From contig JAWOEX010000033.1 of NCBI GenBank assembly GCA_046482545.1, forward strand, positions 1-12,527: DNA of 12,527 nt, given 5' to 3'. This document shows positions 1 to 12,527 of this stretch, piece by piece (the stretch's first letter is position 1; every line of letters begins with the position of its first letter). Under the pieces are notes generated by a model. It was not told the DNA's origin, did no database searches, and saw only the letters and a program-made list of their open reading frames with translations. The DNA is from Candidatus Thorarchaeota archaeon. GTDB taxonomy: Archaea; Asgardarchaeota; Thorarchaeia; Thorarchaeales; Thorarchaeaceae. A program made the translations under genes and the position numbers.

Positions 1-37
1 TCCACAACGACTCGATGAAGGTGCGACCAAGCGTGGT
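1..37 (+). repeat. Junction repeat copy 0 (right end only): truncated 5' part of gene X
   Basis: Bases 1-37 are identical to 7987-8023, then diverge abruptly. The gene X frame (HNDSMKVRPSVV) stops at TAG 54-56. Confidence 0.9.
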
Positions 38-155
38 TAGTAGCTTTCCATCATAGAAGTATCATCAGGGAGACCGGTGAAGCCCTGTGATACCTATTCA
101 ACCACAATCCTAGCTTCATCCGATCCTGAAACTCTTATGGAGCTCTGTTTCATGG

Positions 156-1052
156 CTAAAATAACAGTCGTGCAACAGGGCGGTCCCTATCATTTTCCGT
201 CGTGTCTATCTTGGAGCCGGCCTTGGCTATGCCCTCAAGCCCAATCATGTAAGAGCCCTGAATGAATTCGGACATGGGGAAGTAGACGGTTAGCGTGTCA
301 TTCTCGACATGGGCACTTGTATCATAATCCCTGTCCAATACACCATCTTGGTATTCAATGTAGTAAAGATGGACTTGATCTTCATTCGGTCTTTTCCTGA
401 TGATGCTGATTCCGTATATGCACACCATGGGATTTGAAGAATCCGTTCTGTTTCTGATGTCTCCCACAACCCTCATTTCGAGTACGATAACGTTGCCAGT
501 TCGGTTTGAGCTCAAGTGGATTATATCGACGTTCGGATCTGATACATCCCCTTCCGGGTCTGTGTGGGTGATATTGGCCCGGTGGACAGGCATGTGACCA
601 ATGAAGATAATACTTGGAATCCCGATAACAACGATGATGATTACTGCAAGAACTCTTCTTCTAGGCAGTTTCGACCTAAGGAACGACCAGATTGAGAGGT
701 CTTCCGCTGGCTCGAATGGCTCTTCAATCGCTTTTTCTCTCCAGTCATGCAGATACCACTTTAAGGCATAGGCGATCACTAGCGCTGAAATAATGATTGC
801 AAACAGTATACCGAGGAATCCGATTTGTGATTCAGGTTCTACTCCGGTTGTCGTCACCGTGGTTATGGTTTGAAGCTTCGGACAATAATGTGTGACTCGA
901 GATGATGGTTCCCCCAATATTGCTATCCTATGAAGGCACATTCGCTTTGAACCCTCTCTATGTAGGAAATTCTCAGAGGAAATAAGCCTTTTGCCATCTC
1001 CCGATTCAGGTTGCCTAGATCTCTTCACATATTTTTGAGAGAGAATAAGCAC
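156..1052 (-). CDS. Hypothetical membrane protein with two TM segments and a C-terminal extracellular beta-type domain; start uncertain, possibly 5'-truncated
   Basis: Long ORF with a Thr-rich linker (TITTVTTT), TM segments FLGILFAIIISALVIAYAL and VLAVIIIVVIGIPSIIFIG, then TDPEGDVSDPNVDI and several N-x-S/T sequons. The first ~60 aa look less protein-like. Confidence 0.65.
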   Translation of the reverse strand: MLILSQKYVKRSRQPESGDGKRLISSENFLHREGSKRMCLHRIAILGEPSSRVTHYCPKLQTITTVTTTGVEPESQIGFLGILFAIIISALVIAYALKWYLHDWREKAIEEPFEPAEDLSIWSFLRSKLPRRRVLAVIIIVVIGIPSIIFIGHMPVHRANITHTDPEGDVSDPNVDIIHLSSNRTGNVIVLEMRVVGDIRNRTDSSNPMVCIYGISIIRKRPNEDQVHLYYIEYQDGVLDRDYDTSAHVENDTLTVYFPMSEFIQGSYMIGLEGIAKAGSKIDTTENDRDRPVARLLF

Positions 1053-1403
1053 GCAGGAAGTCTCAACTCTGTCCCCAGATACAACTGTGGTTTTTTCCCA
1101 TGGATTTGTTTAATGCCCGTACGATGTGAACAGAGATGACGGGTCGATACTAGTCACTAGGATAGTGAACGTACCTATTGAACAGAAATCTATTGATGAT
1201 TACGTCGGTGAGGCCAATGTAGATGTTCGTGAAAGCTGATGATTTACGAATACTAAAGGTATCCACAAAGGTGATTAACAAACAGCTTACACGCGAACTT
1301 CAGGACATCAGGTTTGCGATATCATAGAATTACAAATGCTCAAATCCTTTGAAACATTTTGTAAGCTTTCGTTCCTCTAGTTTATTTCTCAGAGAAATCC
1401 ACT

Positions 1404-1883
1404 TTAATTTAACTTATTTAGCTTCGGATATACAACAATTGCTAGCCCCAGCCCAACCATAATTGCCCCGCCACTGAAAGCTCTCGTATTCGGCTCTTGG
1501 GTTACCACTTCGACGCATAGTATCAATAAATCAGGCGAGTTAGATGTGAACAGGAGAACATACAAGTCAGGATATGGTAAATCCAACATTCCCCTCCACG
1601 ACGTGATATTCTCAAAGCTCTTGACTGGTGCTATCGGATTTGATGTTCGGTTCTGAGCCATTGTGTCATTGGCATCTTGCCAGTGCATGAGGTACATGTT
1701 GAAATAGCCAAAACTATGATCCAGCGTTACGTTGACATAGATATCTTTATGCCCGTCAAAAACGAGTCCTTCTTGGTAGTTGCGTTTCACCACAAATACT
1801 GTATCCCTGTAGCTCCCCAAGACCAACGAGAATAACAATACGCCAAGACCAAGCACGATGAGAAGCCTACCGATTCGTTTCAT
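1404..1883 (-). CDS. Two-TM membrane protein, last gene of ABC exporter operon A; homolog of 11109-11600
   Basis: Hydrophobic helices at both termini. Begins 10 bp after the permease stop. SFENITSWRGMLDLPYPDLYVLLFTSN aligns with SIEDIRKYSGTPELGAPGQYVIFITTSN. Confidence 0.85.
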   Translation of the reverse strand: MKRIGRLLIVLGLGVLLFSLVLGSYRDTVFVVKRNYQEGLVFDGHKDIYVNVTLDHSFGYFNMYLMHWQDANDTMAQNRTSNPIAPVKSFENITSWRGMLDLPYPDLYVLLFTSNSPDLLILCVEVVTQEPNTRAFSGGAIMVGLGLAIVVYPKLNKLN

Positions 1884-1893
1884 CTGATCACCT

Positions 1894-2694
1894 TCATATT
1901 TCGCACCGCCTGAAAACCAGCAGTGTCATTGCCAGAAGTATCATCGACATAATGAACGAGATAATGAAACCGTTTAGCAGATCCATTAGTGGTAGAACTT
2001 CCACCTCATGCACAATGCTATATGCCGAGTTTCGAAGGAATTTGGCTGCCGCGTTGAAGGGGTTTACGACGACCCGAACAACACCTGGTATGTTTTGATA
2101 ATCCTGCAAGTACGATGTTACAAACGCATATACGATACCAAATACTGCCGTTACAGATACTCTTTGCGAGACAACTGCAACCAATGAGGACAACGACGCA
2201 AAGAAAATGACGGATAGCCACGTCGCTAACAAAGCAAGAATAACATCGTCAAGGCGTGGCAGTATGGGAAACGTAACTGGAACTGCAAACAAAATCGACG
2301 CTGTGATTGCTCCGGCGGGAATCAAAATAACGAGCATGACCTTACCTAGGAATAGCATTGTGCGCTTGACCGGGTAGGTCAACAGTGTCTGGATGTAGTT
2401 ATCCTCAAAGGATTTGGCGACCGCAAACGCTGAAACAACAGATACGATAATCGCCAACCATGTTGAACCGAGAAGGATTCCCCTCTCAAGCCTGAGTTTC
2501 GGAAAACCAATCACTGCATATTTGATAATATCGAAATCTCCCATTCGAAAAGACCTATCAAACCATGAGAACAACAGATTCCAGGATGGAATGAGAAACA
2601 GGAACGAAATGACTCCTTCTGCGACTGGAAATCGATAGGAGATTCCCAACTCTATCTTCAAAAGTGCCAACAACTTTGAAACTCTGTCTTTCAT
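1894..2694 (-). CDS. ABC-2 type transporter permease
   Basis: About 6 TM segments, ABC-2-like loop FEDNYIQTLLTYPVKRTMLFLGK, and an ATGA overlap with the ATPase stop. Confidence 0.9.
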   Translation of the reverse strand: MKDRVSKLLALLKIELGISYRFPVAEGVISFLFLIPSWNLLFSWFDRSFRMGDFDIIKYAVIGFPKLRLERGILLGSTWLAIIVSVVSAFAVAKSFEDNYIQTLLTYPVKRTMLFLGKVMLVILIPAGAITASILFAVPVTFPILPRLDDVILALLATWLSVIFFASLSSLVAVVSQRVSVTAVFGIVYAFVTSYLQDYQNIPGVVRVVVNPFNAAAKFLRNSAYSIVHEVEVLPLMDLLNGFIISFIMSMILLAMTLLVFRRCEI

Positions 2695-3599
2695 GAAATG
2701 ACCTCCCTAAATGCATCCTCAAGCGTACTTGTCTTCTCAATACTGTGTATTTCTATCTGACTAGAGGTTGCTCTTTGCTCAATGTCTGTACGAAGTCTGT
2801 TGATATTACCATTGAACCGGAATGAAACTACGTTGGAACCGAGAACACGCAGACCTTCAACCTTACCAAGGGAGTCAAGTTCATCAGCCAAGGTATAAGC
2901 TTTCGAACAGCGAACGCGATAGCGCCCCTTGGTGTACTTCTCAACAATCTTGTTCGTTGTACCTTGGACGATTTTTCGCCCTTGTTTCATGAATGCCACA
3001 TGCGTACATACTCGTTCCAATTCAGAGAGAACATGTGAGGCTATGACAAATGACACCCCAGATGCATGATGTAGTTGAGATATCAGATTCAGTATCCGCT
3101 CGCGTCCTGGCACATCAAGATTTGATGTAGGCTCGTCAAGGAATACCAACTCGGGTGACCCGGCGAAGGCCAGAGCGATCCCTAATCGTTGCTTCATACC
3201 TGCCGAGAGATTACCAATTTCCCTGTTTCGTGCATCCTGCAGATCGACCATCTCGAGCAGCTCATCTGGGTTTTTTCCGCTTCCATACAGGTGGATGACC
3301 TGTGAGAGGTAATCCTTGGCGCTCATACCGCTTGGGAGTGATGGTCGCTCATGCAGAACCCCAACTCGTTCCCGTATCTTGAATGAATCAGCAATATCGA
3401 TTCCAAGAACCCGGGCCGAACCCGAATCTGGTAATATGAGACCCAGTAAGATCCGTAACAGTGTCGTCTTTCCCGCACCATTAGGGCCTATGATTCCAAA
3501 GACGCCCGGTTCAATATGGAGATTCAATTCGTCAAGAGCCTGCACATCATCGAAAACCTTGCTTATGCCTGCAACCTCAACAGCATACTCCTCTTTCAT
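2691..3599 (-). CDS. ABC transporter ATP-binding protein (DrrA/BcrA-like exporter type)
   Basis: Walker A GPNGAGKTT, signature LSAGM, Walker B/D-loop LVFLDEPTSNLD, H-loop SH. GAGGT lies upstream on the minus strand. Confidence 0.96.
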   Translation of the reverse strand: MKEEYAVEVAGISKVFDDVQALDELNLHIEPGVFGIIGPNGAGKTTLLRILLGLILPDSGSARVLGIDIADSFKIRERVGVLHERPSLPSGMSAKDYLSQVIHLYGSGKNPDELLEMVDLQDARNREIGNLSAGMKQRLGIALAFAGSPELVFLDEPTSNLDVPGRERILNLISQLHHASGVSFVIASHVLSELERVCTHVAFMKQGRKIVQGTTNKIVEKYTKGRYRVRCSKAYTLADELDSLGKVEGLRVLGSNVVSFRFNGNINRLRTDIEQRATSSQIEIHSIEKTSTLEDAFREVIS

Positions 3600-4230
3600 A
3601 GGTAACCTCTCAAATCAACACAATGCTACGGGTTTGCGGTTCTCCCCACACTAGTGCCATGTATGATTGCCTTAGCACCTGTTTCATTCACATAAGAGCC
3701 TTTTTAGCCTTTTCTATTATTTTGGTTGAGAAACACTGAAATGTTAACGGGCTCAAGAAATTCGGAGTTGGAAGATAATCATAATGGCATTAATATATCG
3801 TCTTATTGCAGAGTACTTGTATCACGTTTGGTGTTCCGGTATGAGCGGAATCAAATAAGCAAATATTGTCTCGCACCAATTAATCCAAGTAACTTATTAG
3901 ACTCCGATTCTTGAAAGCTGTTCAATGGTTTTTGAATCGACCTCTTTAAATATGCCAAAAATGGATATTCTTGAAGCTGAAATTGCGAGTAATGCAACTA
4001 CGAAAAACCTAACGCTTACTATAGCTTTCTCCTGCTTCTTCCTGACTGGTACAACCTCTTCCAAGACTGGCCGAAATTGGCACTAGTGGTTTTTTCATAC
4101 CCGCCTTGATTCTACTCTGGCATACCGAGAAGCCGGTTGTATCATCAAATTGAAGGGAAATCATTCACATCCGCAAATTGATGGCAAGATGCGCCTTGGC
4201 TTTTCCTTCTAACCATTGTATGAACAAACC

Positions 4231-4263
4231 AAAATAAAAAAAAGACTCTAGAGCATAGGGTCT
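4231..4263 (-). terminator. Putative terminator after secreted protein A
   Basis: On the minus strand AGACCCTA-TGCTC-TAGAGTCT forms an 8-bp stem with one mismatch, followed by a long T run, just after the stop at 4268. Confidence 0.55.
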
Positions 4264-4267
4264 ATGA

Positions 4268-4834
4268 TTAGTGCTCTGGGCCGTATATATTTGCTTTAAG
4301 GTGAATGTCTCCTTGATAGAGGATACCCCACCAGACTTCTGCCTTAAGATCCGTAACGCAGATGGTATCGATGTCATGCCAGTATGTACGTGGATTACCG
4401 TTTGTGTAGGTGTCGTCGTAATCTTCGTCGCCTATGCATGTGAATTGTATTGCTTCAAGATGGGCACCGTATAGTATCCACTCTTCAAACATCTTATGTT
4501 CCTCACAGCTATATGCCTGATCGCCATCGTTGTAATGTCCATAGACATAAATCGTTACCTTTCCAAGATAGCCCTGAGCTACATCCTTATCCAAGTCAGT
4601 CCAGTCATAACGACTTGGAGTGAACTCAGCTTCAACATCATGCTTTACTGTATTTGGTCCAATGAATTCTGATTCAACACTGATTGAGCCATCCTTGGCA
4701 ATCAGCATTTCAACCTTAAAGGCATGCGTGACCATACCTTCGTCTTTATTGGATAGAGATGGACCAGATACTGCTGCCGACATCCCCATGACAATTGCAA
4801 TAATAGCTATAGTTAGAGCAAATCGTTTTCTCAT
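4268..4834 (-). CDS. Secreted hypothetical protein A (188 aa)
   Basis: Signal peptide MRKRFALTIAIIAIVMGMSA. GAGGAG RBS upstream. Acidic, aromatic-rich mature region. Confidence 0.85.
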   Translation of the reverse strand: MRKRFALTIAIIAIVMGMSAAVSGPSLSNKDEGMVTHAFKVEMLIAKDGSISVESEFIGPNTVKHDVEAEFTPSRYDWTDLDKDVAQGYLGKVTIYVYGHYNDGDQAYSCEEHKMFEEWILYGAHLEAIQFTCIGDEDYDDTYTNGNPRTYWHDIDTICVTDLKAEVWWGILYQGDIHLKANIYGPEH

Positions 4835-4842
4835 TATTTTTT

Positions 4843-4910
4843 AGCTCCTCTCTTGCGAATCAACCCCCGCAAGACGGTTATAAATTAAGCATTAAATCAT
4901 TTAAATTTTC
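4843..4910 (-). promoter_or_regulatory. Putative promoter/leader of secreted protein A
   Basis: Minus-strand TTTAAAT and TTTATAA boxes, inverted repeat TCTTGCG(4851-4857)/CGCAAGA(4868-4874), and GAGGAG RBS. Confidence 0.45.
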
Positions 4911-5221
4911 TGGGCATACTCGAATTGAGCCCAACAAGAATCAAAGCATCGAGTGACTTGTGCCCAGCCTTATTAGTTTGCTTCATATAGTAGTCAGCAG
5001 GATCATTCGGGGAAGATACTTACAGGTCGTCATTTTGTGGGTGAGGTTATGATATGTATAGATGTAGGTTATCCGTGGGCTCAAAGAACACCGTTACCTC
5101 GTTCAGGCAAGCCTTTTTCCGAGCGGAAACATCTGCCCGGTTCCTTGACCGCGTTCCTGACGTAGTCCCACTCCAAGCGCTCTAAATCCTTTGCTAGCAG
5201 CTCTTCGTTGAAGAGGTTAGT

Positions 5222-5467
5222 TACCGCTTCAATAATTACCCATATGTTTTCGTTCAATTGTTCGTTTACGCGCTCTACATGTTGTACAAGGAGCAGGGTG
5301 AGGATTTCGTGTCAAAACTCAAGGCGCTACTCGCTGCGGGTTCGAGCAAATCACCAGCTGAACTCGCAGAGGAACTCGGCTTCGATATCTCGTCTAAGAA
5401 GTTCTGGCAGAAGGGCATGAAGCAGTTCGAGGAATTCATCGGCATGCTTGAAGAAACAGTAGAATAG
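5222..5467 (+). pseudogene. pepF: 3' fragment of M3-family oligoendopeptidase F (repeat copy 1)
   Basis: Reads YRFNNYPYVFVQLFVYALYMLYKEQGEDFVSKLKALLAAGSSKSPAELAEELGFDISSKKFWQKG, matching the remembered M3B C-terminal pattern (FYNYPY.F...LY..Y...G..F...LLAAG.S.SP.EL...G.DI....FW..G). No HEXXH region upstream. Confidence 0.8.
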
Positions 5468-5497
5468 CCAATCAGGATTGGTATTCCCTGGAATGGA
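5222..5497 (+). repeat. Junction repeat copy 1
   Basis: 5299-5497 aligns without gaps to 7762-7960 (16 mismatches by hand count). It ends 2 nt after the gene X ATG (5493-5495). Confidence 0.95.
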
Positions 5498-5652
5498 GTA
5501 TCCGTTCGCATAGATACTAAATATACACAATAATCGGATCAAAGCGTTGCGGAATCCCAACGAAACAATCTATCTCCAATATGCAGGACGCGTACGAGGA
5601 CAAGATACTTATTAATATCAAAACCAATCTATGCTAGCTTGGGGGATGACTA

Positions 5653-7764
5653 TTGAATAATCATCGCCTTTCGGTGATACTTGGAATTTTCATTCTTTTC
5701 AGTCCGTATGCGGCTCTATACGGTCAACATCTTGGAGCAGGTCAACCTCTAGAAATGAATTTACCAAATGTCGGTAGCGGAACAATTGGCCCCTATGTGG
5801 ATAATATCATCTATGAGGTCATTTCGCAGCAAGATTCGGCCGTTCTCGCTCTGGAAGAGGGCGATGTCGACATGATTGGTGAGATGATTGACCCGGCCTT
5901 GGTGGGGGAGTTGAGGACAGCTCAGAACATCGAGATAGCTGAAACACCAAAGAACGGGTATGGTTACTTGACAATCAACTGCCGGAAATATCCATACAAT
6001 ATAACTGCATTTAGAAGAGCCCTAGCGTATGCTATTGACAAAGAAGAAATAGCCAATCAAGTATTCAATGGTCTAGCTACACCATTAGACAGTTGTGTTC
6101 CAAAGATTAACCCATTTTCAGCTGAGAATCAATTATCGCAACATTACTATGAAGCAGATATTGAGCGAGCTAACGAGATACTGGATGAAGCGGGTTTTGA
6201 TAACGTAGACAATGACAGTTTTAGAGAGGCACCAAATGGAGAAGATTTCGATGTTGACATAGAGCTCTTGTCTAGTATCGATTACGACTCGGAAATAGGT
6301 GATATGATTGTCAATGCTTTTGCAGATCTATCGATAGAAGCGAGTCATTCTGGACCTTGGTACTACAATTCCCTTGACAGACTGGCGTTCCACGGAGACT
6401 ATGACATGATGTGCCTCGGAACCGGTTTTCAGGACTTCGATGTCGATTGGCTTGCCTATGAATATTGGTCAGAGTACGTTGACAAGCCTTGGTACAATTT
6501 CCCAAATTTTCAGAATGAAACATATGATTCGTGGAGAGATGAATTGCTTTATTCAACGGACTACGGTGAAGTCTATGAAGCGGCCATCAAAATGCAAGAA
6601 GTACTTGTCGATCAGAGTCCGATAATAGTCCTGTATGAAAACCTCCAATGCTCAGCTTATCGAACTGACCGTTTTGAAGGTTTCAAGAATGACGTAGTCG
6701 AAAGCGTCCCAGGATACTGGACTAACCACAAGGTTCACCTCAAAGCCTCAGAGGGCGGCCCCTTCGGAGGTACGTTCACAAGGAGCATTCCGCTAGATGT
6801 ACAGACCTTCAATTTCATGGCAACGTCTACTGCGCATAACATGGATATTCTTGGGATGCTATATGATAGTCTGATCAGACGCAATTGGACCGGAGAGGAT
6901 ATCGGCTGGCTTGCAAAAAGATACAGCTTGGAGACCCACGAGGATAATCCAAATGTTCCGGAAAACCACACACGGATTACCTTTGAGCTGCATCCGAATG
7001 TGTTTTGGAATGATGGAAAAAAGCTCACTGCTCATGATGTCACCTTCACATTCAACTACTATCGCTGGGGGATAGACAATCCTTATGGAACTGGTCTACA
7101 GAATATGACCCATGCAGTTGCGATAGGAAACACAACAGTGGAAGTTGAATTTGAAACCGAGTCCTACTGGCACCTGCACTCAATAGGCTACAAACCGATT
7201 CTTCCTGGACATGTATTGACTCATATGGATCCGAAGAAATGGATGGAATGGGATCCAGACCCACGAGAAGAGGAAATGGTCACTTCTGGCCCATTCAACA
7301 TAACAGGGTATAGAGATGGAGAGTACTATAATATCAGCTACAATCCAAATTACTTCCATAACGCTCGAGAATACGGACCAGCAGTGAGCCATCCAGAAGA
7401 CATTTACTGCGATTTTCTCGATTTTATCAAACCAGTAGTCTGGGAAGTTGCTGATCTCGATTCCGGCAAATACTATGTGGAACTTGGTGGCACCACTATG
7501 AGAGAGGGAGTCTGGAATTCACCTAACGACTCAATAGTTGTCCAAACCGGAACTCTGCCGCCTGGCACTCACAATCTCACCTTGGTTATTGCTGATTCAC
7601 AGGGCAACACAGCTCATGACACGGTTTTGGTTTACGTAATAGGACCTATAGCTGTTGTTGCAACTATTGCCGCTTTTGCAGCCATCGGAGCTGCGGCCAC
7701 AGTGGTCGTAGTGTTAGCGTACCAAGAATATCACGAGATGAATATCAGTCGCGAAGCGTCATGA
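5653..7764 (+). CDS. Family-5 (OppA/DppA-like) peptide ABC substrate-binding protein with C-terminal membrane anchor
   Basis: Signal peptide, motifs ALEEGDVDM, FRRALAYAIDKEEI, LYDSL, FWNDGKKLTAHDVTFTF and SGPF...YNPNYF, and a C-terminal TM. TTG start preceded by GGGGGA and an AT-rich box near 5609-5618. Confidence 0.92.
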   Translation: MNNHRLSVILGIFILFSPYAALYGQHLGAGQPLEMNLPNVGSGTIGPYVDNIIYEVISQQDSAVLALEEGDVDMIGEMIDPALVGELRTAQNIEIAETPKNGYGYLTINCRKYPYNITAFRRALAYAIDKEEIANQVFNGLATPLDSCVPKINPFSAENQLSQHYYEADIERANEILDEAGFDNVDNDSFREAPNGEDFDVDIELLSSIDYDSEIGDMIVNAFADLSIEASHSGPWYYNSLDRLAFHGDYDMMCLGTGFQDFDVDWLAYEYWSEYVDKPWYNFPNFQNETYDSWRDELLYSTDYGEVYEAAIKMQEVLVDQSPIIVLYENLQCSAYRTDRFEGFKNDVVESVPGYWTNHKVHLKASEGGPFGGTFTRSIPLDVQTFNFMATSTAHNMDILGMLYDSLIRRNWTGEDIGWLAKRYSLETHEDNPNVPENHTRITFELHPNVFWNDGKKLTAHDVTFTFNYYRWGIDNPYGTGLQNMTHAVAIGNTTVEVEFETESYWHLHSIGYKPILPGHVLTHMDPKKWMEWDPDPREEEMVTSGPFNITGYRDGEYYNISYNPNYFHNAREYGPAVSHPEDIYCDFLDFIKPVVWEVADLDSGKYYVELGGTTMREGVWNSPNDSIVVQTGTLPPGTHNLTLVIADSQGNTAHDTVLVYVIGPIAVVATIAAFAAIGAAATVVVVLAYQEYHEMNISREAS

Positions 7765-7930
7765 GGAGTTCGTGCTGAAGCTCAAGGCGCTACTTGCTGC
7801 GGGTTCGAGCAAATCTCCAGCTGAACTTGCAAAGGAACTCGGCTTTGATATCTCATTCAAGAAGTTCTGGCAGAAAGGCATGAAGCAGTTCGAGGAATTC
7901 ATCGGCATGCTTGGAGAAACAGTAGAGTAG
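7762..7930 (+). pseudogene. pepF: 3' fragment of oligoendopeptidase F (repeat copy 2)
   Basis: EEFVLKLKALLAAGSSKSPAELAKELGFDISFKKFWQKGMKQFEEFIGMLGETVE*, homologous to copy 1, with no start of its own. Confidence 0.8.
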
Positions 7931-8285
7931 CCAATCAGGATTGGTATTCCCTGGAATGGAAGACCTCGCGACACAAACACTTCATCTCCACAACGACTCG
8001 ATGAAGGTGCGACCAAGCGTGGTAGAGACCTCAGACTGGGATAGGGATGATGTCCGGTTCAGTATATGGTGGACTGGGAACCAGGTCAAACCACCGGGCT
8101 CTATCAGGAGGCACCAAGTTATCAGAGGCAAGAGCGTTACCATCGACCTTGACTGGGAGAATGCTCTTGCAGGGTACAACAAGGTCTATGCATCGATCAA
8201 GGTGAAGACCTCCAAGGAGCTATCACAGGACTTCTGGATCAACAGGACAATATCTAGTAGTGAGGACAAGATAACCGTTGACCTA
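7762..8285 (+). repeat. Junction repeat copy 2 (at least to 8285; true right end cannot be determined in this window)
   Basis: 7793-8285 aligns without gaps to 12035-12527 (offset 4242). Confidence 0.95.
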
Positions 8286-8561
8286 TCCCGTTTGACAAGT
8301 GACGATACTGGTCTACCATTGTGGGTGTCCCATGGTTCTGACTATATCTCTCCGGTCATTCTTGTCCGGCTCTACCAAGAGAATCCACTTCGTACTGATT
8401 TTTGGGAGGAACCTATTAGGCGGGCTGAAGACGAGAATCGATGGAGGATTGAGTTCAAGAAGATACGGACCGCAGGAGAGAGATACTGTTCAAGGTGGCC
8501 CTTCATAGCATCCACCGACAGAACCACCTGGAGTGTGCTGGAAAGTGTTTCACTTTACTAA
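7956..8561 (+). CDS. Gene X, hypothetical protein (201 aa from the ATG; may be 3'-truncated)
   Basis: The ATG is conserved in copies 1-3. The frame is preserved against copy 3 with many synonymous changes, which supports real coding sequence. Family not recognised. Confidence 0.75.
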   Translation: MEDLATQTLHLHNDSMKVRPSVVETSDWDRDDVRFSIWWTGNQVKPPGSIRRHQVIRGKSVTIDLDWENALAGYNKVYASIKVKTSKELSQDFWINRTISSSEDKITVDLSRLTSDDTGLPLWVSHGSDYISPVILVRLYQENPLRTDFWEEPIRRAEDENRWRIEFKKIRTAGERYCSRWPFIASTDRTTWSVLESVSLY

Positions 8562-8574
8562 GCCGAAATTGTAG

Positions 8575-8638
8575 CAATATTTATATATTGATAATGATTA
8601 TATTTTTTTTTTGATTGTTCATTAGGGGGTTAAAGGAA
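8575..8638 (+). promoter_or_regulatory. AT-rich promoter region of secreted protein C
   Basis: TTTATATA at 8580-8587, a T run, and GGGGG/AAGGA before ATG 8639. Confidence 0.45.
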
Positions 8639-9136
8639 ATGAAATCTAGAACATTATATTTGATTATTCTATTAGTTCTTTTCAGCTTTCCAGCATGGTT
8701 TATGCCTGTCCAAGCATCTACGGAGGAAACCATGAAAGATACATCACCAACAGAATATGAAGGAACTTGGAGTACCAAGAATAATTATGCAAGAGAAACG
8801 CTTGAGGGATCTGTTTACAGAATCAATATCGTATTTGAATTCTATATTGTTCCTCAAGATGCAGATGATTATTGGTTTCATATAGACTACAATTACATAT
8901 CTCCAGGATGGCCATGGGTTGAATCACTCGATGTGATGTACAGATGGGGTACAAGCGGCGGTTTCACCCATCTTGTATATTACGACGTGCTTGCAAGTGA
9001 GGGAAATTGGGATATTACATCACCTTCATCAACAACCTTACAGCTGAAATTCAGAGGATGTGCAGAAGTAGCAGACGGAATGCAAACAACATGGTACTTC
9101 GGTGATGAACCAATTCTCCATATGTATTGGGAATAG
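8639..9136 (+). CDS. Secreted hypothetical protein C (165 aa)
   Basis: Signal peptide MKSRTLYLIILLVLFSFPAWFMPVQA. W/Y-rich acidic mature region. ATG 8639 is preferred over the track start at 8615. Confidence 0.85.
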   Translation: MKSRTLYLIILLVLFSFPAWFMPVQASTEETMKDTSPTEYEGTWSTKNNYARETLEGSVYRINIVFEFYIVPQDADDYWFHIDYNYISPGWPWVESLDVMYRWGTSGGFTHLVYYDVLASEGNWDITSPSSTTLQLKFRGCAEVADGMQTTWYFGDEPILHMYWE

Positions 9137-9373
9137 AACATCATACATCTTTCTCATCAATGCTTTGAATATAGGAGGTTAATGGATTCCGTAAGGAAGT
9201 CGATGCGTTTGATGAAATTGTCGATTCACCAATAAGATGCCTTGATATTGGCAATTACATCAAGGATTCCTCATGATTCGAGATTGTGGGTAGATTTATC
9301 TTTCAGGTCAGAATACAAAAGCAATGTGGATTTCGATTGATTTGATGCCATCAACGATGGGGTAGGGAAAGCA

Positions 9374-10294
9374 ATGACCAATAACTATGTCATCTCAGTT
9401 ACAGAGATTACCAAAACATTTGGAGATATTGGGGCATTGGACAGTTTCTCATTGGATATAGAACCAGGTATCTTTGGGCTCATCGGTCCCAATGGTGCTG
9501 GCAAGACAACACTACTCCGCATACTACTTGGACTGGCTAAGCCAGACAGAGGTTCTGCAGAGATCTTGGGAAACGATATCTCAGATGATTCATTGAACTA
9601 CATACCATACATTGGAGTGTTACACGAGTATCCCTATTTTCCACCTTCAATGACTCCTAAACAATACTTGGAGGACATTGGTGCACTCTATTCCACGAGT
9701 GTACCCGCAGAGGACCTTCTCTCAATGGTAAAACTCCTAGATGCAGCAGACAGAAAGATTGGGCATCTCTCTGCAGGAATGTATAGACGACTCGGCATAG
9801 CCCAAGCTCTAGTAGGACGACCAAAGCTGGTGTTTCTGGATGAGCCGACCTCGAACCTTGATGTGAGTGGGCGTGATCTGGTGGTGAAGCTCATCGTCAA
9901 GATGCACCAGAAAGACAACGTCTCGTTCTTCATAACCTCTCACATTCTCTCTGAGTTGGAGAGAGCATGCCATAATGTAGCATTCATCGATAGAGGGAGC
10001 GTAGTAGAGAAGGGGACTATACCAGAACTGATTCAGAAACACACCCAAACAAGATTCCGTGTGATATCGTCAGATTCGTGGAGGCTTGAAGAGATTCTGA
10101 GTGACTCGGAAGGGATAGTTGATGTGTTTGTTGACAGTTCTACATCAATCATCTTGGAAGTCACAACTGAGCTGCTATCTGGGTTAGAATCACACCTTCA
10201 GCAATTGGTCAGAGATACGAAGGTCAACATCTATGATGTGGAAACCACAGGAACACTGGAAGATGTGTACAGGAGGGTCATCACACATGGTTGA
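9374..10294 (+). CDS. ABC transporter ATP-binding protein, homolog of 2691-3599
   Basis: GPNGAGKTT, LSAGM, LVFLDEPTSNLD, SHILSELER. Confidence 0.96.
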   Translation: MTNNYVISVTEITKTFGDIGALDSFSLDIEPGIFGLIGPNGAGKTTLLRILLGLAKPDRGSAEILGNDISDDSLNYIPYIGVLHEYPYFPPSMTPKQYLEDIGALYSTSVPAEDLLSMVKLLDAADRKIGHLSAGMYRRLGIAQALVGRPKLVFLDEPTSNLDVSGRDLVVKLIVKMHQKDNVSFFITSHILSELERACHNVAFIDRGSVVEKGTIPELIQKHTQTRFRVISSDSWRLEEILSDSEGIVDVFVDSSTSIILEVTTELLSGLESHLQQLVRDTKVNIYDVETTGTLEDVYRRVITHG

Positions 10295-11105
10295 TAAAAA
10301 GAACAGCGTGTACAACTCAATCAGGTTGGAACGGGATATGTCATATCCATTTCCAGCTATTGTGGGTATTCTTTCTATTTTTCTATTCGCGGCCGCATAT
10401 TCCATGCTGGGAGTAGGTGTCTCCAACAGGTATGTATATCTCTCACCAGGATGTAACAGCACAGCTATCTCAGAAGAGATGGTTTCGTCTGTTGATGCTA
10501 CAAATACTATCGCAACGGTGTATCCCATCATCAATTGCATCTACGTTGTAATGTTGGTAGCCCCTCTGCTGATAGCCTTCAATCTGGCACAAGGATACAA
10601 CAACGGGCAGATGCGAACACTGCTGTCATACCCTATTAAGAGAAGGACGGTCTTATTCCTGAAGAATGGGTCAGTCATCTTCCTTATGTTCTCATCAGGG
10701 ATAATAGGCACTTTCTTTTCATGGGTATTCTACTTTCCATTCTCAATTGACCTGTATTCAGTCATGATCTTGATAATGACCTATGGGATTACAGTCTTGG
10801 CAATTTGCTCTACGTGTACACTCCTAGCAGTGCTTTCTAGGAGTGCACGCATAACAGCATTTGTAGGAGTGGGGGCATGGATGATTGTCTATACTACGTT
10901 CGTGACAGCAGTAACACATTCACCGGCTGCATTCCTTTTGTTCCCCCTTCATCTTGGCATCACGCATATCTCTCATGGAGGTCCTCCGTACTACTATGAG
11001 GAAACTGAATTATTCAATGTCCTCTTAGGAAGTGGTATTACATTGGTACTCGTAATTGTTGTACTGATACTAAGTGTGATCATAATCGAAAGGCAGGAGA
11101 TTTGA
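10287..11105 (+). CDS. ABC-2 type transporter permease, homolog of 1894-2694
   Basis: About 6 TM segments, YNNGQMRTLLSYPIKRRTVLFLK, and C-terminus ERQEI versus RRCEI. ATG 10287 overlaps the ATPase end by 8 nt. Confidence 0.9.
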   Translation: MVDKKNSVYNSIRLERDMSYPFPAIVGILSIFLFAAAYSMLGVGVSNRYVYLSPGCNSTAISEEMVSSVDATNTIATVYPIINCIYVVMLVAPLLIAFNLAQGYNNGQMRTLLSYPIKRRTVLFLKNGSVIFLMFSSGIIGTFFSWVFYFPFSIDLYSVMILIMTYGITVLAICSTCTLLAVLSRSARITAFVGVGAWMIVYTTFVTAVTHSPAAFLLFPLHLGITHISHGGPPYYYEETELFNVLLGSGITLVLVIVVLILSVIIIERQEI

Positions 11106-11108
11106 ACC

Positions 11109-11600
11109 ATGAGTCGAGGACGTCTGCGGGGAAGTATTTTGGTCTTGGGCGTTGTCCTATTGGTAATCTCCTTTCTACCTTGTTCGTTAGTGTATAATCT
11201 GGGAAGTGTTGAAGAGGGGAGCTATGTTGGCTACCCATTCCAATGTGTGACTAATCCACACATAGCGATTGACGTGCGATTTGAGAACACCATTTCTTTC
11301 TACATAGTGTCTCTAGAAGATAGTTTTCGTTTCATTGATGGAGAGCCGCTTGAAAACTTGACCATGCTCTTCAGTATTGAGGATATCCGAAAGTATTCTG
11401 GCACTCCTGAACTTGGGGCACCCGGACAGTATGTCATATTCATCACGACCTCTAACTTGGAAGGCTTAACCTCATACACCCTGTCCGTTTCCGTGAATCT
11501 TCCTCATTTATGGATTTTCACAATAGGTTTGACCTTCCTTGCTCTTGGGGTACTCGTTCACATATCACCCCTGTTGAGAACGGTTCTGTGGAAAAAGTAA
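11109..11600 (+). CDS. Two-TM membrane protein, homolog of 1404-1883
   Basis: Begins 3 bp after the permease stop. Hydrophobic termini, with similar length and motifs to the operon A gene. Confidence 0.85.
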   Translation: MSRGRLRGSILVLGVVLLVISFLPCSLVYNLGSVEEGSYVGYPFQCVTNPHIAIDVRFENTISFYIVSLEDSFRFIDGEPLENLTMLFSIEDIRKYSGTPELGAPGQYVIFITTSNLEGLTSYTLSVSVNLPHLWIFTIGLTFLALGVLVHISPLLRTVLWKK

Positions 11601-12034
11601 CCTCGTATTACACCTCAAGACGTTGAAATATCCGATGTTATATAACAAGACCTTGAGCAGGAGCTCTGGCCATAGTTCCTTGTGGCCGGACAAGCTCAAT
11701 ATTCCTCCCAATCTCAACTGGGGTATACTGAACACAGTTTCCACCAGATTCCACCGCCCGTACTACTATACCTCTTTTCACTTAGCAGCTCTTTTTTGAT
11801 ACTCATGAACCAGCTGTCCGTATACAGGACTCCCCGTCACGGGTGTACACAGTGAATCAGAAGCCGAGGATTACATGCGGCAGACTGTCAGGCGTCTGAC
11901 TGAGCGTGGTGGCATGGAGGAATAGAAGCAACTGTATCAATCCCAAAGTGGCACACTGTTTCTATTTTGCCATGAGCAGAGTGGACGAGCTCTGGGAACA
12001 GCCTGAAATGCGGCCCACTGTTGCTGATGCAATG

Positions 12035-12172
12035 CTTGCCGCGGGTTCGAGTAAATCACCAGCTGAACTTGCGGATGATCTTGGCTTCGATATCTCATCC
12101 AAGAAGTTCTGGCAGAAGGGCATGAAGCAGTTCGAGGAATTCATCGGCATGCTTGAAGAAACAGTAGAATAG
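12035..12172 (+). pseudogene. pepF: 3' fragment of oligoendopeptidase F (repeat copy 3)
   Basis: LAAGSSKSPAELADDLGFDISSKKFWQKGMKQFEEFIGMLEETVE*. The last 72 nt are identical to copy 1. Confidence 0.8.
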
Positions 12173-12197
12173 CGAATCGGGTTTCGTATTCCCTGGA

Positions 12198-12527
12198 ATG
12201 AAAGACCTCGCGACACAAACACTTCATCTGCACAATGTTTCGTTGAAGATGCGGCCAAGTGTCGTAGAGAGCTCAGACTGGGATAGAGACGGTCCCCGGT
12301 TCAGCATCTGGTGGCCCGGGAACCAAGTTAGACCACCAGGCTCTGTCAGGCGACACCAAGTTATCCGGGGCAAGACCGTTACCATCGACCTTGACTGGGA
12401 GAATGCTCTTGCAGGGTACAACAAGGTCTATGCATCAATCAAGGTGAAGACCTCTAAGGAGCTATCACAGGACTTCTGGATCAACAGGACAATATCAAGC
12501 AGTGAGGACACACTCGTGGTGGATCTT
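12198..12527 (+). CDS. Gene X, second allele (partial, open to the window end)
   Basis: 110 open codons, MKDLATQTLHLHNVSLKMRPSVVESSDWDRDGPRF...SSEDTLVVDL, colinear with the gene starting at 7956. Confidence 0.8.
   Translation, partial: MKDLATQTLHLHNVSLKMRPSVVESSDWDRDGPRFSIWWPGNQVRPPGSVRRHQVIRGKTVTIDLDWENALAGYNKVYASIKVKTSKELSQDFWINRTISSSEDTLVVDL

Follow-up and report, generated by a model that had tools for sequence, protein, structure and literature searches.

The locus at the 3' end of pepF in this Asgard archaeon, a member of the Thorarchaeota, raises the question of how pieces of one peptidase gene came to lie between blocks of other genes, and whether a dedicated recombinase put them there. 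The window, i.e., the whole 12,527-nt stretch of DNA that was analysed, is the entire contig C3 (JAWOEX010000033.1) of the genome under study, G000 (GCA_046482545.1). The ends of C3 overlap the left neighbour contig, C27, and the right neighbour contig, C31, by exactly 191 nt each; coordinates below 1 or above 12527 refer to these two contigs. Within the window, three cargo blocks (5181, 2262, and 3760 nt) are flanked by four repeat copies, A to D, all in the same direction. Each copy comprises the 3' end of pepF, including the stop codon, and a spacer of ~30 nt, followed in A, C, and D by the start of a gene referred to as gene X. The copies are 83–92% identical in pairwise comparisons. This layout of four copies and three blocks had been described in an earlier note on the same DNA, and it was borne out apart from the size of the third block, given there as ~3.5 kb. 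When the array was extended to the left in search of a full-length pepF, as that note had proposed, an intact gene of 606 aa was found on C27. The features are listed below with their coordinates and strand.

-1877 to -57 (on C27), +: resident pepF, intact, 606 aa (Peptidase_M3; Pfam M3 and M3_N matches, placed by the exact 191-nt C27/C3 overlap)
-305 to 37, +: repeat copy A, i.e., terminal part of the resident pepF, then the spacer and the start of gene X (just 1–37 inside the window; 37/37 identical to 7987–8023)
-78 to -28 (in the resident pepF), 5390–5440, 7853–7903, and 12095–12145, +: near-identical 51-nt core with one variable site, in all four copies (base-by-base comparison)
38–5218, all genes -: cargo block 1 (ORFs and Pfam matches; block also present in an independent assembly)
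156–1052, -: 298-aa membrane ORF of cargo 1
1404–1883, -: 159-aa ORF of cargo 1
1894–2694, -: ABC-2 permease of cargo 1 (Pfam)
2691–3599, -: ABC ATPase of cargo 1 (Pfam)
4268–4834, -: 188-aa secreted protein of cargo 1
5219–5499, +: repeat copy B, i.e., displaced in-frame pepF tail (249 nt, stop 5465–5467) and 32-nt spacer
5500–7761, +: cargo block 2
5653–7764, +: membrane-anchored family-5 solute-binding protein of cargo 2, 703 aa (Pfam SBP_bac_5)
7762–8268, +: repeat copy C, i.e., displaced pepF tail (7762–7930), spacer, and gene X in its complete form
7956–8561, +: gene X, complete form, about 201–206 aa (begins in copy C, continues into cargo 3)
8269–12028, +: cargo block 3, with the rest of gene X first (ORFs, Pfam)
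8615–9136, +: 173-aa secreted protein of cargo 3
9374–10294, +: ABC ATPase of cargo 3 (Pfam)
10233–11105, +: ABC-2 permease of cargo 3 (Pfam)
11109–11600, +: 163-aa membrane protein of cargo 3
11937–12030, +: terminal gene fragment of cargo 3, paralogous to a 284-aa ORF at ~19513–20367
12029–12510, +: repeat copy D, i.e., displaced pepF tail (12029–12172), spacer, and truncated gene X
12198–12551 (ending on C31), +: gene X, truncated form, 117 aa

The TGA stop of the 703-aa solute-binding protein abuts the start of copy C, and cargo 3 ends within a truncated gene. Among 86 species genomes of the family, the closest relative of the solute-binding protein is 56% identical. The ABC ATPases of cargo 1 and cargo 3 are 47% identical to each other.

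An array of this kind could be produced by an assembler that chained strain variants of one locus into a false series. The source is a metagenome-assembled genome and both contig ends lie in repeats, as such an artefact would have it. However, an independent assembly, GCA_051748335.1, contains an 8141-nt contig that matches window positions 675–8814 at 99.83% identity (13 mismatches, one gap) and crosses the junctions at 5219, 5499, 7762, and 8268 in the same order. Since a second public assembly shows the same order at 99.8% identity, the array is not a misassembly, which the earlier note had named as the outcome that would undo its reading. Moreover, the 13 SNPs leave the order over the four junctions unchanged; the copies differ from one another by 8–17%, their longest exact shared stretch being far below the 191-nt overlaps of the assembly graph; and the joints between cargo and tail have no common sequence that could mislead an assembler. 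An artefact is thus extremely improbable.

The displaced tails were then compared codon by codon. Synonymous changes make up most of the differences among copies A, B, C, and D (dN/dS 0.07–0.14, dS 0.39–0.97), and the synonymous excess was found in 6/6 copy pairs (binomial p 2e-3 to 4e-9). Copy B, when compared with the resident tail, gives a dS of 0.97 and a dN of 0.09 (p = 4e-9 for the excess). The reading frame and the stop codon are preserved in every stub. Differences that are mainly synonymous imply that the stubs are former working pepF ends from other lineages and not decayed local duplicates. The excess at synonymous sites indicates that each block came with its own foreign pepF tail, as had been supposed.

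The copies have also exchanged sequence with one another. Variants of the spacer and of the gene X head are shared among the copies in a mosaic pattern; taken with the near-identical 51-nt core, this means that recombination takes place among the copies. In the relatives G001 and G002, the core region differs at synonymous sites. Crossovers or gene conversion have probably occurred within the core.

On the left, the displaced copies have no common end point (-305, -225, and -200 in G000; -66 in G002), which argues that there is no fixed att boundary. In G002, the 66-nt displaced tail is followed by the same sequence that lies directly 3' of the intact pepF of strain L145. Microhomology was assessed at the two joints for which parent-like sequence was available for comparison, and 7 nt were found at each: GCTGAAG at the 12029 joint and AGAAGGG at the G002 joint. 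It may be noted that the three left ends in G000 fall within ~100 nt, which is tighter than random illegitimate joints predict. This clustering may reflect a preferred break site, or the survivorship of short stable repeats.

When three conspecific strains were compared, the 5' part of pepF was found to be 97–100% identical, while the 3' end, the downstream context and the crossover point differed in each. G000 and L145 are 97% identical upstream. Within pepF they show 23 differences in the first 1050 nt (2.2%) and 130 in the last 771 nt (16.9%; Fisher 7e-30), with the divergence break near nt 1081. Between L145 and L148 the break lies near pepF nt 1400–1560, and the last ~100–200 nt of the L148 gene belong to the G002/L140 type, as do 427 nt downstream. 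The strain crossovers are thereby placed 260–740 nt upstream of the pepF stop. These breakpoints indicate that homologous crossovers occurred inside pepF among conspecific strains, in keeping with the suggestion that pepF homology serves as the anchor. Downstream contents differ among relatives, with no identical fixed arrangement across them; a single very close strain (99.8%) has the same block order. An extra pepF tail was found at 0 of ~88 pepF loci of other genera, and so far appears in this genus only.

We consider it probable, at roughly 0.6, that the 3' end of pepF is a hotspot of recombination, where DNA has been added by sequential displacement without an integrase. Incoming DNA from another lineage would carry the 3' part of its own pepF and the genes downstream of it. 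The incoming pepF part would pair with the resident gene by homology and cross over inside it, while the far, non-homologous end would be joined illegitimately, with the aid of a few bases of microhomology, within the last ~60–300 nt of the resident gene. The working pepF would then retain its own 5' part and acquire a foreign 3' end, the imported genes coming next; the old tail stub, still attached to its former downstream genes, would be shifted to the right. Repeated events would stack the blocks, the newest adjoining pepF, and the ~50-nt core would be homogenised by subsequent crossovers or by gene conversion between copies. We infer the order of events, the combination of one-sided homologous and illegitimate recombination, in place of a circular intermediate, at each joint, and the entry of the DNA into the cell. 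The imports themselves are inferred and not witnessed, because no donor genome was found in which pepF is directly followed by the solute-binding protein gene, a full gene X or cargo 1. We know of no demonstration of homology-facilitated illegitimate recombination in an archaeon. The locus is best described as a recombination hotspot that leaves scars, and not as a demonstrated dedicated "system".

The earlier note had explained the array by circles, each carrying a pepF tail, the spacer and the gene X head as an arm and integrating by a Campbell-type single crossover; blocks could leave again through recombination between neighbouring copies. Such a route would yield exactly the observed product, in which every block lies between direct repeats, the arms hold foreign alleles and an integrase is absent, and the core and mosaic variants described above show the recombination between copies on which it relies. 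The end product of displacement is topologically the same as that from integration of a circularised fragment, and the sequence alone cannot tell the two routes apart. However, the circle model predicts an intact gene X at the right end. Of the two intact genes expected at the array ends, pepF was present (606 aa, on C27), but gene X was not: a search to the right for its full form ended in the copy D form, which runs to 12551 on C31, is truncated (117 aa vs 206 aa in copy C), and is no resident gene. Nor did gene X prove to be the conserved host gene that it had been taken for. It is homologous to an internal domain of ~140 aa in proteins of 570–1400 aa of other genera, the homology extending to 8387, and it was not seen downstream of pepF in any other genome examined.

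The pepF gene itself also bears on this choice. Its divergence from the conspecific strain begins ~740 nt before the stop, outside every proposed arm (200–480 nt), the recombinant being either G000 or L145. A tract of this length fits a one-sided crossover with an illegitimate joint better than a short-armed circle. Further, neither a circle junction nor a strain without one of the blocks came to light, the 99.8% strain keeping the order, and making circles with such arms would still require an illegitimate joint. We therefore regard the circle model as unlikely.

The ORFs of the window and of the ~30 kb around it yielded no recombinase or transposase domain, as had been noted before for the window. 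When the whole genome (98.9% complete) was searched, neither a tyrosine recombinase (PF00589, cut-off E<=0.01) nor a serine recombinase (PF00239) was matched; in control genomes the same profiles matched in 14/14 and 12/14 cases, respectively. The genome also gave no Pfam match for Cas1. An integrase of a diverged or unfamiliar class might have gone unmatched. Of the proposed integrase-free accretion of cassettes, it stood that the array is real, adjoins an intact pepF and lacks an integrase, while the part assigned to gene X, truncated and not a host gene, did not. The likeness to integrons drawn for the repeats fell away: there are no inverted repeats, and three copies fold no better than shuffled sequences (DNA-fold z-scores of -0.5, +0.4, and -0.7), so that they are not attC-like. 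Rfam gave no match in the window. An integron was also considered as such and rejected, there being no IntI-type tyrosine recombinase, and the repeats being in-frame pieces of pepF with no attC-type palindromes.

In Escherichia coli, phage 21 and e14 carry a replacement tail at icd. The blocks of the pepF array might likewise be decayed integrative elements, accreted in tandem by a site-specific integrase with its att site in the 3' end of pepF and bringing replacement tails with them. Replacement tails rich in synonymous changes are a hallmark of such elements, and the 51-nt core could be an att core. Against this, the genome yielded no tyrosine or serine recombinase, the displaced copies have scattered left ends that are not fixed at the core, and the strain crossovers lie 260–740 nt upstream of the stop, away from the core. 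The cargo genes, moreover, are of ordinary cellular kinds; those of G002 are that genome's only ThiF/ThiS pair. This origin appears highly improbable.

The same displacement might instead have been started by a selfish nuclease, either an RNA-guided TnpB/aCas1 element, a type common in Thorarchaeota, or a homing endonuclease, that cut rival pepF alleles, with repair copying the attacker's recoded tail and its passengers. The genome has 6 TnpB genes, a TnpB-type element is present in it as ~80 miniatures, and the left ends clustered within ~100 nt would suit a preferred cut site. Groups of aCas1-associated TnpB occur in Asgard archaea (PMC10691335). In L145, the end of a miniature lies 365 nt past the pepF stop, but where ~80 copies are spread over 3 Mb, finding one close to pepF in a single strain carries little weight. 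All 6 genes and the miniatures of G000 are away from the locus, and no TnpB gene, Pfam Cas1 match or miniature was found in C3, in C31 or in the terminal 15 kb of C27. None of the 71 miniature flanks (48 right-end and 23 left-end) shares a match of at least 12 nt with any pepF tail. Other short matches to the tails are at chance level or inside unrelated coding genes; for the guides of other genomes, this was a weak search confined to G001 and G002. Initiation by such a nuclease seems doubtful to us.

The same architecture occurs behind other conserved genes of the genome. The 23S tail is present in 33 copies and the 16S trailer in 6, and a displaced tail of the H+-PPase gene occurs once, around an LRR gene. 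If sequence conservation makes a good anchor, the 16S, 23S and H+-PPase cases are as expected. Because pepF codes for protein, it allowed the origin of the stubs to be tested at the codon level and the crossovers between conspecific strains to be mapped. As a tentative extension, Thorarchaeota might possess a general, integrase-free capture of genes at the 3' ends of their most highly conserved genes (here 16S, 23S, pepF, and H+-PPase), perhaps with an unrecognised driver such as an RNA-guided nuclease or a machine for DNA import and recombination. If so, this route would be a functional counterpart of integrons in a lineage without site-specific recombinases.

Tandem or additive islands at the 3' ends of tRNA and tmRNA genes, including tycheposon arrays, are built by tyrosine or other integrases at fixed att sites. 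Like them, the pepF array has accessory blocks accreted behind a conserved gene, with partial copies of its 3' end in between and a content that differs among close relatives. Unlike them, it lacks an integrase in the genome, has ragged ends, and shows crossovers that vary within 740 nt of the gene end. In integrons, the attC sites are imperfect palindromes of 55–141 nt that fold single-stranded and bound single-gene cassettes. Integrons are also known from archaea (Ghaly et al. 2022, PMC9668308). Like them, the pepF locus holds a variable series of accessory genes, most of which are poor in promoters, and the latest arrival presumably lies nearest the anchor; the pepF array differs in that there is no IntI, the repeats (144–480 nt) are parts of a coding gene, and the blocks hold up to five genes.

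For the effector-immunity arrays of the Vibrio cholerae T6SS, sequential displacement by homology-facilitated illegitimate recombination has been proposed (Kirchberger et al. 2017, PMC5361080), and the orphan arrays of Rhs/CDI arise, as cited there, by C-terminal displacement (Jackson et al. 2009, PMC2935791). In these arrays, as at pepF, a conserved sequence upstream provides the homology for anchoring, the old 3' part gives way to the incoming module and is left downstream as an orphan with a conserved piece, and growth takes place next to the anchor without an integrase. In contrast, the anchor here is a housekeeping peptidase whose own end is functionally unchanged. What varies is the set of neighbour genes (transporters, a binding protein) and not a toxin tip and the immunity gene that goes with it; there is no obvious selection for retaining the old units; and the host is an Asgard archaeon. 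The pepF array is real and instructive, yet it resembles the gene pile-ups known in bacteria.

The window makes up the entire contig C3 of the host genome (45 contigs, 3.05 Mb, 98.9% complete). Over 191 nt on either side it coincides exactly with a neighbouring contig, its start with the end of C27 and its close with the reversed end of C31; the locus was therefore read as C27 + C3 + reverse C31, and the window numbering was continued into both neighbours. Nearby genes for TBP and a RadA-type protein mark the host as an archaeon. The earlier note had described three cargo blocks bounded by at least four copies of a pepF junction, and four direct copies were indeed found:

Window -305 to 37: copy A, the end of the intact pepF, with spacer and start of gene X
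Window 5219-5499: copy B, pepF 3' end and spacer, without the start of gene X
Window 7762-8268: copy C, pepF 3' end, spacer and start of gene X
Window 12029-12510: copy D, pepF 3' end, spacer and start of gene X

All copies run in the same direction, with pairwise identities of 83-92% (differences of 8-17%). In every copy the 3' end of a peptidase M3 gene, still in frame and closed by its stop codon, precedes a spacer of ~30 nt. The blocks between them measure 5181, 2262 and 3760 nt. Block 1 and block 3 both hold a module of four genes, encoding an ABC ATPase, an ABC-2 permease and two small proteins, one secreted and one in the membrane. The two modules are oppositely oriented; between them, the ATPases share 47% identity and the secreted proteins show no relationship. 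The exact sequence of the block 3 ATPase was found on no other record. The cargo of block 2 is a membrane-anchored family-5 solute-binding protein (window 5653-7764), the first part of which (residues 47-274) aligns with the second half of the Pfam model alone (profile positions 146-363). This protein family is strongly expanded in these genomes, with hundreds of matches among 86 genomes. No donors were found; in the 86 species genomes of the family the block 2 protein has no relative above 56% identity.

The earlier note had accepted that a misassembly, or the lack of an intact pepF beside the array, would undo its reading. An intact pepF of 606 aa, with Peptidase_M3_N and Peptidase_M3 domains, adjoins the array on C27; its stop codon lies 57 nt left of the window and its end is copy A. 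In a second assembly, an 8141-nt contig of GCA_051748335.1 corresponds to window 675-8814 at 99.83% identity (13 mismatches, one gap) and retains the order from block 1 through copy B, block 2 and copy C into block 3. The joints between cargo ends and the next tails have no common sequence able to mislead an assembler. The array is not an assembly artefact.

To trace the displaced tails (stubs), those of copies A-D were compared codon by codon in all six pairs, with a binomial test of synonymous excess. Tails A and B differ by 27.5 synonymous and 16.5 non-synonymous changes, where the neutral expectation is ~1/5 synonymous. For six of six pairs, dN/dS was 0.07-0.14 and dS 0.39-0.97 (binomial p from 2e-3 to 4e-9), and the reading frame and stop codon are preserved in every stub. 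Drift after a local duplication would give no synonymous bias; therefore the divergence arose within working pepF genes, and in-situ tandem duplicates that then decayed are ruled out. Judged by this codon pattern, each stub must once have been the functional pepF end of a different lineage. A 51-nt core (-78 to -28) has one variable site among the four copies, and relatives differ there synonymously. Variants are also shared in mosaic fashion: B equals C in the spacer, and A equals C across 37 nt of gene X. The near-identity of the core and these mosaic variants point to later crossovers or gene conversion between copies.

Extra tails at pepF were found only in the genus of the host. Among the pepF loci searched in other genera, 57 from metagenomes and ~31 from genomes, none had one, and a degenerate pattern of the tail core gave no match in the genome-contig or metagenome-contig collections. 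The only other double match in the pepF-locus survey consisted of two complete pepF genes in tandem, in one genome (G035). A pepF-like extension left of copy D proved to be a piece of an unrelated gene.

The 90%-identity protein cluster of the host pepF has seven members, and their contigs were compared. L145 (GCA_964448665.1) and L148 (GCA_053582745.1) come from the same species complex as the host, G000. G000 and L145 are 97% identical over 1084 nt upstream of pepF, and all three strains are 96-100% identical over the first ~1050 nt of the gene. Within pepF, G000 and L145 show 23 differences in the first 1050 nt against 130 in the last 771 nt (Fisher 7e-30), with the divergence step near nt 1081. 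L145 and L148 are near-identical to about nt 1400 and diverge beyond it; the last 100-200 nt of the L148 gene, together with 427 nt past its stop, belong to a type seen in another species of the genus (genome G002 and contigs L140, L141 and L143 from microbial mats). As the earlier note had anticipated, relatives carry different downstream contents, each strain having its own sequence directly after the pepF stop: the gene X head and block 1 in G000, a truncated RadA-like ORF in L145, and the G002-type spacer in L148. From the positions of the steps and the strain-specific sequence that follows, the 3' part of pepF and the DNA behind it are thus exchanged as one, the left crossover site varying within the gene.

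G002 has one extra pepF tail (66 nt plus stop codon), 2.7 kb downstream of the gene. What follows this stub equals the sequence past the intact pepF of L145: the stub retains its old neighbours. Between pepF and stub lie ThiS and ThiF, arranged as they are beside pepF in the three mat contigs; they are the sole copy of these genes in G002. On their left side the stubs end unevenly (-305, -225 and -200 in G000, -66 in G002), the three in G000 falling within ~100 nt of one another. Two of the joints have a parent-like counterpart. The last stretch of block 3 is a gene fragment with a paralogue, a 284-aa ORF, 7.7 kb to the right, and the switch into pepF lies within a shared GCTGAAG; the G002 joint lies within a shared AGAAGGG. 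On the right, a copy simply ends where the lineages cease to share their downstream context.

The simplest account of the locus, to which we assign a probability of roughly 0.6, is sequential displacement. A homologous crossover would occur inside pepF, and the other end of the incoming DNA would be joined illegitimately, guided by microhomology, in the last few hundred bases of the resident gene; the old tail would then remain as a stub ahead of its old neighbours. What we infer is the sequence of these events, the way in which the DNA entered and any enzyme that helped.

The earlier note had explained its observation, which is real, by circles carrying a pepF tail, spacer and gene X head as a homology arm, which would enter by a single crossover and be excised between neighbouring copies. 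Such circles would leave a final structure identical to that of displacement, which sequence alone does not tell apart; overall the earlier interpretation is partly right. The idea also required an intact resident gene X at the right end, which is wrong. The homology of gene X to proteins of other genera reaches 8387 in copy C and ends at ~12542 in copy D; therefore the right-end copy is the truncated one, with 117 aa against 206 aa, and gene X follows pepF in no relative examined. Moreover, the recombinant pepF tract exceeds the length of the proposed arms, no trace of excision was seen, and the near-identical GCA_051748335.1 shows the same block order. Entry by circles is thus improbable. 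As for gene X itself, the homology covers its first ~146 residues and an internal domain of larger proteins (570-1400 aa) in other genera, where no homologue adjoins pepF. It matched no Pfam or NCBIfam model, and its Atlas model is of low confidence with weak beta-sandwich look-alikes; it was accordingly dropped as a candidate nuclease or recombinase. No TnpB was found on the contigs with gene X homologues in five genomes.

The absence of a recombinase or transposase from the window, also claimed earlier, was borne out: no ORF in the window or ~45 kb around it matched these families, and Pfam models for tyrosine and serine recombinases had no match in the whole G000 genome (controls positive in 14/14 and 12/14 genomes). 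Site-specific integration at an att site in the pepF 3' end is unlikely, given this lack of a recombinase, the ragged stub ends and crossovers located away from the 51-nt core. Rfam gave no match in the window or the neighbouring contigs.

Displacement might instead be driven by a selfish nuclease, an aCas1-TnpB element with guides aimed at the anchor gene. In G000 the TnpB genes number six, a ~570-nt miniature element of TnpB type is present in about 80 copies, and Pfam Cas1 had no match. All of these TnpB genes and miniatures are located outside C3, C31 and the end of C27, and the flanks of 71 miniature ends (48 right, 23 left) showed no match of at least 12 nt to the pepF tails. In L145 a miniature end (L145:3270-3341) lies 365 nt past the pepF stop, the contig ending inside it; as a hint this is weak, because there are ~80 copies per genome. 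We regard such a driver as doubtful. Among other short matches to the tails, an 18-nt exact match to the copy C variant (C19:12745-12762, in a small palindrome ~45 nt from a 23S-tail repeat) was taken as chance, ~0.2 such matches being expected, and two 19/20 matches in G001 and G002 were rejected as lying within an orthologous coding gene. The remaining ones were at chance level or in coding genes.

From pepF to a conserved citrate-transporter gene (CitMHS) the distance is 4.9 kb in the related genome G001 and about 24 kb in G000. The CitMHS gene (window 24033-26043, on C31) is 97.3% identical to that of G001 (L039:925-2935), while other flanks common to both are 71-81% identical, suggesting that the two species exchanged this gene recently. 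Right of the window, a variable stretch at window coordinates 17058-21674 (C31) holds a GH3-family gene, an extra TBP gene and a RadA/Rad51-like gene; truncated RadA-like ORFs stand directly behind a pepF tail in L145 and G002. Further tails and arrays in G000 are as follows:

Window 23569-23733 (C31:6531-6695), minus strand: inverted 165-nt stub with stop codon, near the right border
C13, C17, C18, C19, C45, C32 (31.8-55 kb) and C2:83817-83952, with a partial copy at C31:16899-16959: copies of the 23S-tail repeat, those on C2 and C31 at contig ends
C2:80561-83864: 23S rRNA gene (LSU)
C2:258-1487: 16S gene, with the array behind it at C2:1495-32926
C33:3-2045 and C38:66237-67867 (L149, L150): H+-pyrophosphatase case

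The inverted stub matches, at 87.9% identity, the 3' end of a second gene for an M3 peptidase, which is convergent to pepF in L140, L141 and L143; the remainder of that gene is gone in G000. The 23S-tail repeat (~135 nt, non-coding) consists of the 3' end of the 23S rRNA gene and its trailer, in 33 same-direction copies spaced 1-6 kb apart. The partial copy lies ~800 nt right of the window (about 13304-13364) with flanks that match other G000 arrays; therefore material has moved between arrays. Behind the 16S gene, six copies of its trailer divide ~31 kb of accessory genes, each fused to the final ~10 codons of a convergent gene. The H+-pyrophosphatase locus is a second protein-gene case of the pepF architecture in G000: the gene and its tail are followed by one LRR-protein gene (381 aa), a displaced tail (~85% identical over 200 nt) and trm1, with a contig break inside the repeat. 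Between diverged lineages, homology is best anchored in conserved genes, and an anchor-driven process therefore predicts this distribution; a selfish nuclease would likewise favour conserved targets.

Asgard archaea are the nearest prokaryotic relatives of eukaryotes, and to our knowledge their uptake and retention of foreign genes is poorly known. The pepF locus would document gene gain by plain homologous and illegitimate recombination in a genome where tyrosine and serine recombinases were not found. A protein-gene anchor adds evidence out of reach for rRNA-anchored arrays, namely codon statistics on the origin of the tails, and three conspecific strains fix different crossover points within pepF. 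Such arrays also account for assembly breaks at these places, and small 'pepF-like' ORFs should be annotated with caution, as scars. Should a dedicated driver exist, the locus supplies defined junctions for testing it.

The array is not an integron; the earlier note had proposed an integron-like locus. The hallmarks of integrons, with their defining features in archaea taken from PMC9668308, are IntI and attC palindromes; the pepF array has no IntI, and its copies are without attC-like palindromes. The displacement model has been proposed in the same form for the T6SS effector-immunity arrays of Vibrio cholerae (PMC5361080), and, as cited there, for displacement of Rhs C-termini (PMC2935791). 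The array is best filed as a gene pile-up of this known displacement type, new in that its host is an Asgard archaeon and its anchor a housekeeping protein gene.
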